A stretch of DNA of 12,329 bases, from the IMG/VR virus record IMGVR_UViG_2737471824_000002; one strand, written 5' to 3'. Position numbers and translations under genes: made by a program. This DNA is from a virus. Taxonomy: Duplodnaviria; Heunggongvirae; Uroviricota; Caudoviricetes. The notes beneath the pieces are model-generated. The model ran no database searches and was not told the DNA's origin. It worked only from the letters and a program-made list of their open reading frames with translations. Positions 1,595-11,045 of the stretch are shown here, piece after piece. The first letter of the stretch is position 1. Every line of letters begins with the position of its first letter.

Positions 1595-1813
1595 AGGCTT
1601 TTCCTGTATAAATGGCCGTATACAGTACACTAAATATGAAAACATTTCTCGTATTATTATTTTATATATGACTTTCTTTCAAAATAATTACCCACATTTT
1701 TAATGTGTATGTTTTTTTAGCGCCGTTGAGAACAACGTGTGCTGTCAAAACTACCCCGTAGACTCCGATCTTTTCAAACATATTGCACCATCCGTGTACA
1801 TCGGGGTGAGGAT

Positions 1814-2029
1814 ATGAAATCAATGGATAAGTTAACAACAGGTGTTGCCTATGGCACATCGGCGGGTAATGCTGGTTTCTGGGCATTGCAGTTACTCGAT
1901 AAAGTAACTCCGTCACAGTGGGCTGCAATCGGTGTGCTGGGTAGCCTGGTTTTTGGCCTGCTGACGTATCTGACAAATCTTTATTTCAAGATTAAAGAAG
2001 ACAGGCGTAAGGCTGCGAGAGGAGAGTAA
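1814..2029 (+). CDS. essQ: Class II holin / pinholin (phage 21 S-like), dual-start motif MKSM
   Basis: [71 protein letters not shown]; two TMDs and a charged C-terminus; the Met1/Met4 dual start is typical of the holin/antiholin pair of S21. It lies immediately upstream of ydfR and the SAR endolysin. Confidence 0.9.
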
Positions 2030-2033
2030 TCCA

Positions 2034-2341
2034 ATGACTCAAGACTATGAACTGGTTGTGAAAGGAGTCCGTAATTTTGAGAATAAAGTTACGGTAACTG
2101 TAGCCTTACAGGACAAAGAACGCTTTGACGGTGAAATTTTTGACCTGGATGTCGCCATGGACCGTGTTGAAGGAGCTGCGCTGGAGTTTTATGAGGCAGC
2201 AGCCAGAAGGAGCGTCCGGCAAGTCTTCCTGGAAGTAGCAGAAAAATTGTCAGAAAAAGTTGAGTCTTATCTGCAGCATCAGTACTCCTTTAAGATTGAA
2301 AATCCTGCCAATAAGCACGAGCGTCCTCATCATAAATATCT

Positions 2342-2345
<4 letters not shown>
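2034..2345 (+). CDS. ydfR: YdfR-like protein (DUF1327 family as I recall it), lysis-cassette associated, function unknown
   Basis: 103-aa ORF between holin and endolysin, same order as essQ-ydfR-rrrQ in K-12 Qin; its stop overlaps the endolysin start (ATGA at 2342-2345). Confidence 0.75.
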
Positions 2346-3369
<1,024 letters not shown>

Positions 3370-4617: not shown

Positions 4618-4791
4618 ATGAATATTGAAAACTTAAAAACAAAAGCAGAAGCAGATATTTCTGAATATATAACAAAAAAAATTATTGAACTTAAGAAAAA
4701 GACCGGGAAAGAAGTTACCAGTATTCAGTTTACCGCACGGGAAAAAATGACGGGTCTTGAAAGCTATGATGTCAAGATTAATTTAATCTGA
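4618..4791 (+). CDS. gnsB: GnsB-like small protein (Gns family)
   Basis: 57 aa MNIENLKTKAEADISEYITKKIIELKKKTGKEVTSIQFTAREKMTGLESYDVKINLI (an extra ATG lies at 4615); SD GAGGAAA upstream; TATAAT -10 at 4564-4569. Matches GnsA/GnsB as I recall them. Absent from the ORF track because it is under 60 aa. Confidence 0.8.
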   Translation: MNIENLKTKAEADISEYITKKIIELKKKTGKEVTSIQFTAREKMTGLESYDVKINLI

Positions 4792-5855: not shown

Positions 5856-6032
5856 CGCGGGTTTTCGCTATTTATGAAAATTTTCCGGTTTAAGGCATTT
5901 CCGTTCTTCTTCGTCGTAACTTAATGTTTTTATTTAAAATACCCCCTGAAAAGAAAGGAAACGACAGGTGCTGAAAACGAGCTTTTGGGCCTCTGTCGTT
6001 TCCTTTCTCTGTTTTTGGCCGTGGAATGAACA

Positions 6033-6578
6033 ATGGAAGTCAACAAAAAGCAGCTGGCTGACATTTTCGGTGCGAGTATCCGTACCATTCAGAACTGGCA
6101 GGAACAGGGAATGCCCGTTCTGCGAGGCGGTGGCAAGGGTAATGAGGTGCTTTATGACTCTGCCGCCGTTATAAGATGGTATGCCGAAAGGGATGCTGAA
6201 ATTGAGAACGAAAAGCTGCGCCGGGAAGTTGAAGAACTGCGGCAGGCCAGCGAGACAGATCTCCAGCCAGGGACTATTGAGTACGAACGCCATCGACTTA
6301 CGCGTGCGCAGGCCGACGCACAGGAGCTGAAAAATGCCAGAGACTCCGCTGAAGTGGTGGAAACCGCATTCTGTACTTTCGTGCTGTCGCGGATCGCAGG
6401 TGAAATTGCCAGTATTCTCGACGGGATCCCCCTGTCGGTGCAGCGGCGTTTTCCGGAACTGGAAAACCGACATGTTGATTTCCTGAAACGGGATATCATC
6501 AAAGCCATGAACAAAGCAGCCGCGCTGGATGAACTGATACCGGGGTTGCTGAGTGAATATATCGAACAGTCAGGTTAA
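6033..6578 (+). CDS. nohA: Terminase small subunit (lambda Nu1-like)
   Basis: 181 aa MEVNKKQLADIFGASIRTIQNWQEQGMPVLRGGGKGNEVLYDSAAVIRWYAERDAEIENEKLRREVEEL…, near-identical to lambda gpNu1 with its N-terminal winged-HTH; overlaps the start of the A-gene fragment as in lambda. Confidence 0.9.
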   Translation: MEVNKKQLADIFGASIRTIQNWQEQGMPVLRGGGKGNEVLYDSAAVIRWYAERDAEIENEKLRREVEELRQASETDLQPGTIEYERHRLTRAQADAQELKNARDSAEVVETAFCTFVLSRIAGEIASILDGIPLSVQRRFPELENRHVDFLKRDIIKAMNKAAALDELIPGLLSEYIEQSG

Positions 6579-6798
6579 CAGGCTGCGGCATTTTGTCCGC
6601 GCCGGGCTTCGCTCACTGTTCAGGCCGGAGCCACAGACCGCCGTTGAATGGGCGGATGCTAATTACTATCTCCCGAAAGAATCCGCATACCAGGAAGGGC
6701 GCTGGGAAACACTGCCCTTTCAGCGGGCCATCATGAATGCGATGGGCAGCGACTACATCCGTGAGGTGAATGTGGTGAAGTCTGCCCGTGTCGGTTAA
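6553..6798 (+). pseudogene. Terminase large subunit (lambda gpA-like), N-terminal 81-codon stump ending at a deletion junction
   Basis: [81 protein letters not shown] matches the first ~81 residues of lambda gpA; the frame then hits TAA (6796-6798) where tail-fibre sequence begins. The ATPase and nuclease domains are absent. Confidence 0.85.
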
Positions 6799-8446
6799 CA
6801 GCACTTCCGAGTCACTGGCGGCAACACCAAAAGCCGTTAAGGCCGCGTATGACCTGGCTAACGGGAAATACACCGCACAGGATGCAACGACAGCACAGAA
6901 AGGGATAATCCAGCTAAGCAGCGCGACCAACAGCACGTCTGAAACGCTTGCCGCGACACCAAAGGCAGTAAAAGCAGCCAATGACAATGCTGAGAAACGT
7001 CTGCAGAAAGATCAGAACGGTGCGGATATCCCTGGCAAAGATACCTTTACGAAAAATATTGGTGCCTGCCGTGCCTTCGGTGGGTCAGTAAGCACAACAA
7101 CAGGAAACTGGACGACTGCACAGTTTATCGAGTGGCTGGATTCTCAGGGAGCATTTAACCATCCATACTGGATGTGCAAGGGTTCCTGGTCTTATGGCAA
7201 TAATAAAATCATTACTGATACTGACTGCGGTAATATTCATCTCGCCGGAGCTGTCATTGAAGTAATGGGGATAAAGTCAGCGATGACGATCCGCATTACC
7301 ACACCGACCACCTCCACTGGTGGTGGAACAACTAACGCCCAGTTTACCTATATTAATCACGGAACAGATTATTCACCTGGCTGGCGAAGGGACTATAACT
7401 CCAGAAATAAGCCAACGGCATCAGAGATCGGGGCGTTACCGTCAGGTGGAACAGCAGTATCATCAGTTAATCTGGCTTCAAAAGGTCGGGTAACCGCGCT
7501 GACAGACAATACGCAGGGGGCAGCAGGTCTTGAGTTATACGAGGTGTATAACAACGGATATCCAACAGCGTATGGAAATATCATTCACCTGAAAGGGATG
7601 ACAGCCGTTGGCGAAGGTGAGTTACTCATCGGCTGGAGTGGTACAAGCGGTGCTCATGCTCCGGCATTTATTCGTTCACGACGGGATACGACCGACGCAA
7701 ACTGGTCGCCGTGGGCGCAGCTTTACACCTCGGCTCATCCTCCTGCAGAGTTTTATCCAGTCGGTGCACCAATCCCGTGGCCATCAGATACCGTTCCGTC
7801 TGGTTATGCCCTGATGCAGGGGCAGACTTTTGACAAATCTGCATACCCGAAACTTGCAGTTGCTTATCCGTCAGGCGTGATCCCTGATATGCGTGGCTGG
7901 ACGATTAAGGGCAAGCCCGCCAGTGGTCGGGCCGTATTATCTCAGGAACAGGACGGCATTAAATCGCACACCCACAGCGCCAGCGCATCCAGTACGGATT
8001 TGGGGACGAAAACCACATCGTCGTTTGATTACGGAACCAAATCCACGAATAACACCGGGGCGCATACCCATAGTATTAGCGGGACCGCAAATAGTGCCGG
8101 TGCGCACCAACACAAGAGTTCCGGTGCATTTGGTGGCACGAACACGAGCATTTTCCCTAATGGTTATACCGCGATTTCAAATCTAAGCGCGGGGATTATG
8201 AGCACAACAAGCGGTAGTGGCCAGACTCGTAATGCAGGGAAGACATCATCAGATGGTGCTCATACCCACTCGCTGTCCGGCACTGCTGCAAGCGCAGGCG
8301 CACATGCACATACTGTCGGTATTGGTGCTCATACGCACTCCGTTGCGATTGGTTCACATGGACACACCATCACCGTTAACGCTGCTGGTAACGCGGAAAA
8401 CACCGTCAAAAACATCGCATTTAACTATATTGTGAGGCTTGCATAA
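6788..8446 (+). pseudogene. stfQ: Side tail fibre protein (lambda Stf-like), N-terminally truncated; only a GTG pseudo-start
   Basis: The C-terminal ~230 aa match the lambda Stf C-terminus ([13 protein letters not shown]…[11 protein letters not shown]…[30 protein letters not shown]…[31 protein letters not shown]); the STSE(S/T)[11 protein letters not shown] motif occurs twice near the 5' end; the central part is unlike lambda. The N-terminal virion-attachment region is missing. Confidence 0.85.
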
Positions 8447-9021
8447 TGGCATTCAGAATGAGTGAACAACCACGGACCATAAAAATTTATAATCTGCTGG
8501 CCGGAACTAATGAATTTATTGGTGAAGGTGATGCATATATTCCGCCTCATACAGGTCTGCCAGCAAACAGTACCGATATTGCACCGCCAGATATTCCGGC
8601 TGGCTTCGTGGCTGTTTTCAACAGTGATGAGTCATCGTGGCATCTCGTTGAAGATCATCGGGGTAAAACGGTTTATGACGTGGCTTCCGGCGACGCGTTA
8701 TTTATTTCTGAACTCGGTCCGTTACCGGAAAATGTTACCTGGTTATCGCCGGAAGGGGAGTTTCAGAAGTGGAACGGCACAGCCTGGGTGAAGGATACGG
8801 AAGCAGAAAAACTGTTCCGGATCCGGGAGGCGGAAGAAACAAAAAACAACCTGATGCAGGTAGCCAGTGAGCATATTGCGCCGCTTCAGGATGCTGCAGA
8901 TCTGGAAATTGCAACGGAGGAAGAAATCTCGTTGCTGGAAGCATGGAAAAAGTATCGGGTATTGCTGAACCGTGTTGATACGTCAACTGCACAGGATATT
9001 GAATGGCCAGCACTGCCGTAG
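8446..9021 (+). CDS. tfaQ: Tail fibre assembly protein (Tfa)
   Basis: 191 aa [54 protein letters not shown]…; start overlaps the stf stop (TAATG at 8444-8448); Tfa-family chaperone adjacent to stf, as in lambda. Confidence 0.85.
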
Positions 9022-9097
9022 GGTAAAACATATAAATTCTATAATTAGATGTATCTTTCCATTTACGGCAAGGAAGGGGGCTTGGAAGACGTAAAGC

Positions 9098-9120
9098 ATC
9101 TCACACCGAGATTATTTTTT
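9098..9120 (+). terminator. Weak candidate terminator between the convergent tfa and pin genes
   Basis: ATCTC-ACACC-GAGAT hairpin (5-bp stem) followed by TATTTTTT; the T-run overlaps the pin stop codon on the opposite strand. Confidence 0.3.
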
Positions 9121-9709
9121 ATATGTCAGGTGTCTGAAGTTTTGCTTTGGCTCTTAAAATGGTTTGCCGCGAGGTTTTGAATTCCCGGGCAATGGCACTT
9201 ATACTTACACCTGACTTAATTCGTTCGAATACCGCCTGTTTCTGTTCTTCATTTAACACAGGTGGTCGACCAAAACGTTTCCCTGCGCCGCGGGCTCTTA
9301 CTATCCCGGAATGAGTGCGTTCAAGTAAAAGGTCTCGTTCAAATTCAGCGACTGCTGAAATTACTTGCATCATCATTTTTCCTGTTGGACTGGTCAGGTC
9401 AATGCCCCCCAATGCTAAGCAATGCACTCTGATACCTGTTTCGGTCAGTTGTTCCACTGTTTTCCTGATATCCATTGCATTACAACCAAGGCGATCCAGT
9501 TTTGTCACAATCAATTGATCACCACATTTCAGGCGAGCAAGCAACCGGTTAAAACCAGGACGCTCACTGGTTGCTGCTGAGCCGCTAATGTGTTCTTCGA
9601 TTATTTGCTGAGGTTTGATTTTAAAACCTGCACTTTCGATTTCCCGGCGTTGATTTTCGGTGGTCTGATCCAGCGTTGATATCCGACAGTAAGCAAAAAT
9701 TTGAGACAT
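9119..9709 (-). CDS. pinQ: Pin-family serine DNA invertase (Gin/Hin/Cin/Pin resolvase-invertase family)
   Basis: 196 aa [75 protein letters not shown]… with the catalytic Ser in the YxRxST motif near the N-terminus and a C-terminal HTH ([18 protein letters not shown]). Confidence 0.9.
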
Positions 9710-10025
9710 AGTGAGACTCTATACGAAATTGGTGTTCATATCATAATGCATCTCAGAAAATAATTATGATTATTTTTGTGCATATTTGTATGTACACGTT
9801 CGAAAATAAACGAATGCGTATGCAACCCCGTAATTTTGGTGAGACCCAAAATCGATTTTGTGAAAAATGGCTTTAACTCGGTTTGTTTTTCGAGTTCCGG
9901 GCGGACTCAAGGAAGAAGAATAGTGTTGCGTGTTATTTTAACCAGATTTCAAGTTGTTTGGTCGTGGAAAAGTGGAGCAAAATGTTGTTAAAGTGGAAAA
10001 ATGATAAAAAAGTAAGTTTATTATA

Positions 10026-10259
10026 TTACATTTTACCATTTAAATTTTGGTTGTCTTTAAGAACTGATATCGCTGTTTGTAATAATTCTTTGTTATCCAG
10101 CCATGATTTTTTCTTTATGTTTCCTTCAATGTAATCAAGCAATGTTCTGGTATTGATAGGTCTTCCCTGTTTTGCTACTTCCACTACAGCATCCCCTAGG
10201 ATAATTCTTACTTCAGGAAGCTGCGCAGGGAACCACTTTAGGGTGTCTTTTGATTTCAT
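10026..10259 (-). CDS. ydfK: YdfK/YnaE-like small protein (annotated as cold-shock protein in K-12 prophages, as I recall)
   Basis: ORF 10026-10292; the internal start at 10259 (MKSKDTLKWFPAQLPEVRIILGDAVVEVAKQGRPINTRTLLDYIEGNIKKKSWLDNKELLQTAISVLKDNQNLNGKM, 77 aa) is preceded by AAGGAA; a TATAAT -10 on the minus strand (10298-10303) would place the transcription start after the longer ORF's ATG. Confidence 0.75.
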   Translation of the reverse strand: MKSKDTLKWFPAQLPEVRIILGDAVVEVAKQGRPINTRTLLDYIEGNIKKKSWLDNKELLQTAISVLKDNQNLNGKM

Positions 10260-11045
10260 GAAGATATTCCTTAAAATATTATTGATTTTCATTGCGATAT
10301 TATATGTCTGATTCAGGATATGTTGACTTATACATCGGTTTTGTCTGGGTTATTGGATATGCCAATCCCTAATTTTATTAGGGCATGACTAAAAATGCTG
10401 AATATGATAAGGAGAGATGTGATTATCAGTATGCTGTTCATATAGCCTCGAATTAGTAATGTGTTATATATGATATAGTTGACAATTTTTATCTTGGGTG
10501 TTCTTAAAGTTCGTAGATAAACATTGTCGTTTCAGGTATACAGGAATGCTAACAGGTGGCAGCAAAAATCAGGCGGTTTATGGCGCAAGCTGAAGCGGCA
10601 ACTGCAAACTATCTTATGCAGAGACTCTACACGGATTGGGTTTAAAAGTATACATAGATAACAGTTTTTATCTGAAAAAGAAAAATATCAAGGTGATATA
10701 GCCTATATGCCTTTGATGCGGAGGAATGAATGTGATGGGAGTGATGTATCTGAATAGTTGAAAAACCGCAGACACGCCTTATGCAAGAACGTGCTGCGAT
10801 TGGCTGGTAAATTTTTCGATAGTGTGAGTATTGAATGATTTCCAGCCGTTCTTGATTTTACGCATAAATCCATGAAAAAACTACTTATCTGTTGGGGAGT
10901 TTTTTTGGGGCATATATGGGACAGAAATAGGCCCCAGATAGACACTGAGATCGAACTTAGGATGCTTTTTAAAAAAATGCAACTATCTGAAAAAACCTAG
11001 AAAACGCCAAGGAAACCACAGGATGGGAAAAAACACCTGTGAATT

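Follow-up and report, generated by a model that had tools for sequence, protein, structure and literature searches.

pinQ of a Qin-type prophage as the probable resolvase gene of a decayed, non-autonomous Tn3-family transposon

The small serine recombinase gene pinQ (9119..9709, minus strand) lies beside the tail-fibre genes of a Qin-type cryptic lambdoid prophage of Escherichia coli, which we analysed in a 12,329-nucleotide stretch of DNA (IMG/VR record IMGVR_UViG_2737471824_000002; hereafter the window). An earlier note, made from the sequence alone, had read this gene as an orphaned invertase of the kind that flips tail-fibre segments in Mu, P1 and e14. Our analysis suggests a different origin. 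Positions 9076–9909 (834 bp) appear to be what remains of a non-autonomous Tn3-family transposon, of which pinQ would be the tnpR gene and which would have decayed in the phage lineage; we put the probability of this reading at roughly 80%. The element would consist, in order, of a right terminal inverted repeat (IR-R), tnpR (that is, pinQ), the recombination site res, a spacer and a left terminal inverted repeat (IR-L). It would have entered an ancestral lambdoid phage in a single insertion into the b region, between tfa and ydfK, accompanied by a 5-bp AGGAA duplication, and would have been inherited since by the lineage that includes Qin, Rac, 2H10 and Tritos. In this scenario pinQ would be a cointegrate-resolvase gene whose natural substrate was a three-subsite res just upstream of its own start codon, and the module would since have decayed, with the transposase gone, both terminal repeats ~70% conserved, res eroded (site I worst) and a cysteine at the position equivalent to R71 of Tn3 resolvase.

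A transposon-like unit around pinQ

PinQ is a TnpR-type recombinase of 196 amino acids with Resolvase and HTH_7 domains (PF00239, E = 2.5e-36; PF02796, E = 2e-11). Its closest res-bearing relative is encoded on an E. coli IncI plasmid (locus L006), where the gene for a protein 84% identical to PinQ forms part of a transposase-less unit made up of IR-L, spacer, res, tnpR and IR-R. Window positions 9076–9909 (834 bp) align with this unit from end to end (78% over 863 columns), and the similarity halts at the outer ends of both repeats, beyond which the flanks are unrelated; a discrete unit is shared by the phage window and the IncI plasmid, which are unrelated replicons. The IR-R remnant (9076..9110, outer end 9076; GGGG-GCTTGGAAGACGTAAAGCATCTCACACCGAG) matches Tn3-family repeats and is the best match in the window to the family repeat GGGGTCCGCTTGGAAAACGGAAATTATCCCACGCTAAG, with a score of 15 (60 shuffles gave a mean of 11.8, a standard deviation of 1.0 and a maximum of 15). 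It shares 27 of 38 positions with IR-R of L006, as counted from the alignment, with a 3-nt deletion, and it lies in the expected orientation ~8-9 nt past the stop codon, in the window as in L006. The IR-L remnant (9872..9909, outer end 9909), which was located through the L006 alignment and reads TGAGTCCGCCCGGAACTCGAAAAACAAACCGAGTTAAA in the sense of pin, shares 26 of 38 positions with IR-L of L006 (GGGGTCAGTTTGGAATTCGGAAAATAAACCATGTTAAG), again counted from the alignment. The segment that runs from IR-L to res aligns with its L006 counterpart with a local score of 27 versus 7.4 ± 1.2 (z = 15.8).

A perfect 5-bp direct repeat, AGGAA, immediately flanks the two ends. Read directly from the sequence, one copy (9071..9075) abuts the outer end of the right repeat and the other (9910..9914) stands directly outside IR-L; duplication of 5 bp of target is a hallmark of Tn3-family transposition (PMC13367494). 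The junctions are conserved in 66 of the 66 lineage copies in which both ends can be read, four of these with one substitution, which argues for one ancestral insertion. The L006 unit has no 5-bp direct repeat of its own. The plasmid sequence just outside its IR-R (4638-4650, AAGGAAGAC) resembles the phage sequence just outside IR-L (9909-9920, AAGGAAGAAG), a likeness that might be due to a common preference for target sequence, to chance or to a past connection between the copies.

Proteins of the PinQ family (58-86% identical) are very common, with matches in 1868 PLSDB plasmids and in many genomes of Enterobacterales and Burkholderiales. PinQ is 72-86% identical to the aligned family sequences, other res-bearing relatives extend down to ~58%, and the helix-turn-helix hardly varies among them. 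Half-sites of the form TGTMCGAAA occupy fixed positions within the 120 bp before the ATG in 62 of 75 diverged loci (~58-84% identical, from Enterobacterales to Burkholderiales). They pair into subsite I (half-sites at -115 and -98; 26 bp, with the centre CCG-GT/AC-CGG), subsite II (-75 and -52; 32 bp) and subsite III (-34 and -21; 22 bp), and a TATAAT (consensus tgCgtTATaAT) is conserved between sites II and III. The res of Tn3-family elements likewise comprises three dimer-binding subsites with crossover in site I (PMC13367494; Tn3 structural work, PMC9943657), and the layout upstream of the PinQ relatives is, as judged from sequence, that of a Tn3-family res. The centre of site I (loci L017-L088, ~-106 to -99 from the ATG) has two forms among the members, CCGGTCGG and CCGACCGG; the dinucleotide in the middle is accordingly GT or its complement AC, which implies that the crossover core can have either polarity with respect to the accessory sites.

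Homologs of Tn3-type transposases are found in the flanks of 22 of 83 family loci. Around a dozen encode a full-length transposase, transcribed away from the recombinase gene from a start ~160 bp upstream of it, and res lies between the two; the layout is thus tnpA <- res -> tnpR, as in Tn3; the transposase of locus L020, for example, is 994 aa long and carries DDE_Tnp_Tn3 (E = 3.8e-149) plus DUF4158. The family transposons end in 38-bp repeats (GGGG...TAAG; the sequence against which IR-R was scored), present at both ends in locus L040 and at the transposase end in L020. Other family copies adjoin plasmid partition or toxin-antitoxin genes. We infer from this architecture that members of the PinQ family are cointegrate or multimer resolvases. 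In one Erwinia persicina locus (L027, 3962-3999), no res is left: in its place a family terminal repeat stands directly against the start codon of the recombinase, so that the end of another element has inserted there. A literature search with the terminal repeat and res sequences returned only apparently unrelated papers on E. coli strain typing and virulence genes.

The window itself contains no DDE_Tnp_Tn3 transposase, and the homolog of res that precedes pinQ (9720-9822, minus strand) is eroded. The remnant of site III (9720..9741; ATATGAACA...TTTCGTATA), placed by positional homology to the family consensus, carries 4 and 1 mismatches in its two half-sites, and that of site II (9751..9782; TGCACAAAA-N14-TTTCTGAGA) carries 2 + 2 and keeps the family spacing. 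The remnant of site I, the crossover site (9797..9822; CATACGCAT-N8-TTTCGAACG), aligns with site I of L006 (TGTCCGAAATCGACCGGTTTCGGACA) and carries 4 + 2 mismatches; it is the most eroded of the three, both in its left half and in the central CCG-GT/AC-CGG, which is lost. All told, the half-sites of the window (4, 2 | 2, 2 | 4, 1) hold 15 mismatches, versus a family median of 5 (interquartile range 4-6) and 27.9 ± 2.3 expected of shuffled sequence, and the window matches 42 of 57 conserved res positions, where the family median is 54 and the minimum 40. A TATGAT (9740..9745, minus strand) occupies the place of the family TATAAT between sites II and III and is probably the -10 element of pinQ.

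The active site has changed as well. By alignment of KLDRLGR with KLDRLGC, the codon TGT at 9482..9484 (minus strand) encodes Cys76 at the position of the catalytic Arg71 of Tn3 and gamma-delta resolvases. This cysteine is present in K-12 PinQ and PinR, in 80 of 80 IMG/VR copies, in loci L009-L016 and in an 84%-identical variant (P0009), whereas the equivalent residue is Arg in every res-bearing relative that could be read. With Cys at the R71 position, PinQ does not carry the full Tn3 catalytic set (Y6, R8, S10, D36, R68, R71); Y7, R9, S11 and R73 are present, and the position taken as equivalent to D36 holds Glu39, a residue that hardly varies within the family. In Tn3 resolvase, R71A and R71K reduce cleavage ~1000-fold and abolish resolution in vivo (PMC2794168). 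PinQ would thus appear to be a weak recombinase at best; it probably still binds the better-preserved sites II and III, which overlie its own promoter, and may thereby regulate its own expression. One prophage copy (L171, 3610-4922) is a mosaic that suggests gene conversion between plasmid and phage copies: the 5' half of its gene is plasmid-like and encodes Arg76, sites II and III are plasmid-like, site I is still eroded, the distal upstream region (including the palindrome described below) resembles that of phage 2H10, and tfa is split by an IS66 element.

Several observations weigh against a decayed mini-transposon as the origin of this unit. Both terminal repeats have degenerated (27/38 and 26/38), and the outer end of IR-L is TGAG/CGAG, not GGGG. 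Neither the phage collection nor any of 5426 complete E. coli genomes yielded an empty site to a query made of the joined flanks, so that the insertion is read from the repeats and the limits of homology only. We know of no member of the PinQ family that has been tested biochemically. The pinQ open reading frame is intact in every copy, and dN/dS is 0.375 within the lineage versus 0.15 to the plasmid copy; constraint on the gene therefore seems to be relaxed, not lost. These comparisons indicate that some function of the PinQ protein is still selected, and "relic" should not be read as "dead". Finally, if the inversion of e14 and the resistance to T2 that have been reported for PinQ (discussed below) are direct effects, Cys76 must be tolerated.

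PinQ and the tail-fibre invertases

The earlier note had called the gene a Pin invertase and supposed that it is either orphaned or acts on a substrate elsewhere. A version of this idea holds that PinQ is a tail-fibre invertase of the Gin/Cin/Pin type whose invertible stf'/tfa' segment was deleted, so that the enzyme would be orphaned and a crossover site might persist in degenerate form. The name of the gene and its proximity to stf-tfa speak for it, as does the finding that Gin is the best solved-structure match of PinQ (E = 1.6e-29); the catalytic domain of PinQ also scores nearer to Gin than to gamma-delta resolvase. However, PinQ and e14 PinE are only 38% identical, versus 78% for PinE and Gin, and the recognition helix reads TSRQTILR in PinQ as against VSTLYK in PinE and LSTLY in Gin. 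The label is therefore inaccurate, in that PinQ is not of the Gin/Cin/Hin/PinE type. NCBIfam gave no equivalog for PinQ at cut-off.

Nor do the DNA sites that such an enzyme uses appear here. In e14 the inverted pairing of the pix sites is plain (TTCTCCCAAACCAAGGTTTTCGAGAG and TTCTCCCAAACCAACGTTTATGAAAA), and one of the two lies ~60 bp upstream of the pinE start. We built an invertase-site matrix from hix, gix, cix and pix half-sites, on which real sites score 27-32 and on which, as a positive control, a gix-like site in another lineage copy (L158) scores 27.5. A scan of the whole window with this matrix found no site of the hix/gix/pix type (best 26-mer 10.2, versus a shuffle mean of 10.1), and a search for inverted repeats in 5900-10700 gave only short pairs at chance level, none of them bracketing stf-tfa. 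Sites of the invertase type or of the PinQ-family type were found neither elsewhere in the window nor in the whole 46-kb genome of phage 2H10. Dyads of family type with the geometry of site I or II number 0 in the window and the 2H10 genome, and family half-sites occur in the window at chance level (7 observed, 5.6 expected).

Gene order leads to the same conclusion about the fibre genes. The 3' end of pinQ, not its 5' end, points toward them, opposite to the arrangement in e14, and in 84 of 85 lineage copies the fibre genes are convergent with pin and collinear, with no inversion. The exception, L158, is the only copy of the 85 with an inverted fibre set, and it is a rearrangement on an IMG/VR contig. 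There (1335-1640 and 1755-3118), a 3' remnant of tfa is joined to a pseudogene of a true Gin/Cin-type invertase with an in-frame stop in KLD*LG, and the contig also holds TTATCTAAAACCTCGGTTTACAGGAA, a crossover site of canonical form, and an stf'/tfa' pair in inverted orientation, after which comes trkH. The joining of a PinQ-type gene to an invertase remnant, a gix-like site and an inverted stf'/tfa' set could be counted in favour of a deleted segment; L158 is a useful contrast that illustrates the make-up of a genuine invertase system.

A protein 98-100% identical to PinQ is encoded by functional lambdoid phages, among them 2H10, Tritos, mEp460 and Kati. In 2H10 and Tritos, whose contexts we retrieved, the order is stf-tfa-> <-pin <-ydfK-like, followed by int/xis and without a second fibre set. 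The layout stf-tfa-> <-pin <-ydfK is native to functional lambdoid phages and is not a product of decay. In the window, as the earlier note had described, the 3' end of pin lies about 100 bp past stf-tfa (the measured gap from the tfa end to the pin stop codon is 97 bp), and a gene survey together with the inverted-repeat search found no second, inverted stf'/tfa' set. With low identity to the invertases, a different recognition helix, no invertase-type site, an opposite orientation, a layout shared by functional phages, and transposon ends, direct repeats and a res of its own, pinQ is very improbably an invertase gene that lost its segment, a reading that we consider already largely refuted. 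The claim that the recombinase is orphaned thus holds in so far as no invertible segment is present here, but not in its implication that a Mu/P1/e14-type invertase once had one: a tnpR with its own terminal repeats, target duplication and eroded res would never have been such an enzyme. If pinQ is a cointegrate-resolvase gene and not a tail-fibre invertase gene, no invertible fibre segment would be expected.

The upstream palindrome and the neighbouring prophage genes

Within the 49-bp spacer that separates IR-L from res site I lies the perfect 14-bp palindrome CAAAATCGATTTTG (9847..9860), which the earlier note had placed ~140 bp upstream of pin (138 bp from the ATG by our measurement) and had proposed as a degenerate recombination site or an operator. 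In autonomous relatives the transposase gene begins in the region equivalent to this spacer. Perfect palindromes of at least 14 bp are expected 0.87 times per window and occur at least once in 60% of dinucleotide-preserving shuffles; only a test confined after the fact to the 316-bp intergenic region brings P to ~0.03. Some 90 lineage copies share the 12-bp core AAAATCGATTTT without variation, and nearly all of the surrounding DNA is invariant too, which makes conservation of the core uninformative. The outer pair varies among C..G, A..T, A..G and A..A, and this free variation argues that the dyad symmetry is not specifically maintained. We considered the change from C..G to A..T in phage 2H10 as a compensatory one and rejected this in view of the A..G and A..A variants. 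Three copies of the heptamer CCAAAAT/ATTTTGG alternate in orientation (9833-9839, 9846-9852 and, with one mismatch, 9855-9861), so that within 9832-9861 the palindrome is one of two overlapping dyads.

As a site for recombination the palindrome fares poorly. The 26-mer centred on it scores -4.4 on the invertase matrix (rank 134 of 12,304), in keeping with the remark of the earlier note that it matches gix and hix badly, and its arms are 3-4 mismatches each from the family half-site. It stands outside the block homologous to res, and the homologous segment of L006, CCAAAGGGCTTTCA, is not palindromic. We conclude from these comparisons that it is probably not a recombination site. As an RNA or DNA hairpin or a terminator it was also rejected: folding z-scores lay between -0.2 and -1.7, and a scan of 9000-10500 yielded nothing like a terminator.

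Could the palindrome nonetheless be a functional protein-binding site, either an operator for PinQ or another regulator of pinQ, or a new, lineage-specific crossover site? The invariance of its core, its P value within the intergenic region alone, the resemblance of its flank TTCACAAAA to the lineage's own degenerate site II half (TGCACAAAA), and an arm spacing of 9+4+9, which is that of family site III, can be cited in support. However, the whole region is just as invariant, the outer pair is not maintained, close to one such palindrome is expected per window, the core occurs only once in the complete 2H10 genome and hence has no partner site there, the homologous position in L006 is not palindromic, and the match to the invertase and family matrices is poor. 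We therefore regard a functional site of either kind as improbable. The palindrome is most likely incidental, and may be a lineage-specific by-product in the leftover spacer of the element; a role as an operator is possible, with no positive support.

The gene order of the window agrees with that of K-12 Qin. Upstream of the fibre genes are nohA (6033-6578) and a fragment encoding the N-terminal part of terminase gpA (6553-6798), which is fused to the middle of stf at ~6796; the truncated side tail-fibre gene stf (6788..8446, plus strand) encodes Phage_fiber_2 and Collar domains, and in intact prophage fibres the homology to it begins at 6796. This deletion junction between terminase and stf is unlike K-12, where nohA overlaps a shorter stfQ, and positions 6500-10400 are covered in one piece by none of the complete E. 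coli genomes of the collection. The tail-fibre assembly gene tfaQ (8446..9021, plus strand; Caudo_TAP, E = 3.6e-43) is convergent with pinQ, and its 3' part contains a full-length match to Rfam IS009 (RF02111; 220.9 bits, 8789-8987, plus strand). On the IR-L side, outside the element, is ydfK (10026..10259, minus strand; K-12 annotation, PHROG 2718), and ydfJ runs from 11046 onward. Small open reading frames at 9776-9991 and 9883-10134 have no Pfam or PHROG match, and an Rfam search of 9022-10025 gave 0 matches. Two matches to the cspA thermoregulator (RF01766; 684-1076 and 3586-3971, plus strand) lie upstream of prophage cold-shock genes.

Inversion in e14 and the place of PinQ among serine recombinases

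A published study bears directly on the activity of PinQ. Kirigo et al. (2025) reported that overproduction of PinQ raises inversion of the e14 P segment from ~30% to 88%, that this inversion gives rise to a chimeric StfE2, which blocks adsorption of T2, that deletion of pinQ lowers both inversion and T2 survival, that these effects need stfP/stfE/e14, and that T2 infection induces pinQ and pinR (PMC12529663). In the same study PinE gave 49% inversion, no inversions were seen in Qin or Rac, and a pinE single mutant, still pinQ+ pinR+, was locked in one orientation (PMC12529663). The study contains no active-site mutant, no biochemistry and no test of PinQ in a pinE-null background (PMC12529663).

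The suggestion of the earlier note that the substrate lies elsewhere is borne out to the extent that this study names the e14 P segment (PMC12529663), but direct catalysis by PinQ is unproven. The overproduction, deletion, dependence and induction results all favour a PinQ that is fully active in trans, for which the pix pair of the e14 P segment would be the physiological substrate and local sites would be irrelevant. We nevertheless find direct catalysis doubtful, because PinQ has Cys76 and a resolvase-type recognition helix, because the family half-site TGTMCGAAA is unlike pix (only 4-5 of 9 positions match the pix half-sites in our own comparison), and because the pinE mutant is locked even though it is pinQ+ pinR+. 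In addition, an 88:12 bias is not a simple invertase equilibrium, as the 49% obtained with PinE illustrates, and functional phages carry the gene with or without e14. An indirect or modulatory role of PinQ is a live alternative.

One form that such a role might take, which we put forward tentatively and consider less likely than not, is that the PinQ/PinR lineage represents an exapted, catalytically attenuated TnpR that lambdoid phages have kept for a function other than recombination. Surfaces for DNA binding and synapsis would have been kept, and the crossover site and the R71 arginine lost. PinQ might then modulate another recombinase, for example by biasing PinE-mediated inversion of e14, which would explain the locked pinE mutant, or it might act as a dominant-negative binder of res sites on the many related plasmids and transposons. 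Were this so, the published effect of PinQ on e14 inversion would be indirect.

Among known systems, the TnpR/res modules of the Tn3 family (Tn3, gamma-delta, Tn21/Tn1721) resemble PinQ and its relatives most broadly. Like PinQ, their recombinases are small serine enzymes with a C-terminal helix-turn-helix; like the PinQ family, they have three subsites, each bound by a dimer, immediately before tnpR, and crossover takes place in the distal one, site I; and they share with the PinQ relatives a DDE_Tnp_Tn3 transposase that is divergent across res and 38-bp GGGG...TAAG repeats, and with the unit in the window a 5-bp target duplication. The gamma-delta half-site begins TGTC, as TGTMCGAAA may. Unlike these modules, the window has no transposase, its terminal repeats and res are eroded, and its recombinase has Cys at the R71-equivalent position. 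Site I of the PinQ family, at 26 bp, has an invertase-like spacing and differs from that of Tn3, which is 28 bp, and the catalytic domain of PinQ scores closer to Gin than to gamma-delta resolvase.

With the Din invertases (Gin, Cin, Hin and e14 PinE), PinQ has in common its superfamily, size, name and neighbourhood of fibre genes, together with a 26-bp site I of hix/gix length. It differs from them in identity (38%), in recognition helix and half-site, in the lack of paired crossover sites and of an invertible segment, and in an orientation opposite to theirs relative to the fibre genes; in its relatives the accessory sites of res take the place of a remote enhancer. Resolvases of the ISXc5 type, which belong to the Tn3 family, have catalytic domains unusually close to those of invertases and act on a three-subsite res. 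They match the combination of a Gin-like catalytic domain and res that is seen in the PinQ family, a likeness that we treat only as a lead. A further parallel is offered by TIME-like elements (IS101, TIME244), which, like the unit in the window, are non-autonomous members of the Tn3 family with family repeats and 5-bp direct repeats. TIMEs are miniature elements, short (256 bp in MITESen1) and lacking a transposase gene, and some retain a res (PMC13367494); the 834-bp unit, unlike them, keeps an intact tnpR and, instead of being scattered, occupies a single fixed place in a phage lineage.

The genes pinQ and pinR have long been known in E. coli K-12 and were annotated by analogy with the invertases of e14, Mu and P1, and the anti-phage mechanism proposed in 2025 is built on PinQ as an active invertase (PMC12529663). 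An origin from tnpR, an eroded res and the lineage-wide loss of the arginine would shift the questions to be asked of this mechanism: whether PinQ acts on e14 directly or indirectly, whether it catalyses or only binds, and what a C76R reversion would do. Descent from a mini-transposon would also account for the consistent absence of invertible fibre segments from the Qin/Rac-type phages seen so far. More broadly, the comparison defines a large and well-conserved family of putative resolvases and their res sites, with a clear half-site consensus and matches in the 1868 PLSDB plasmids noted above.

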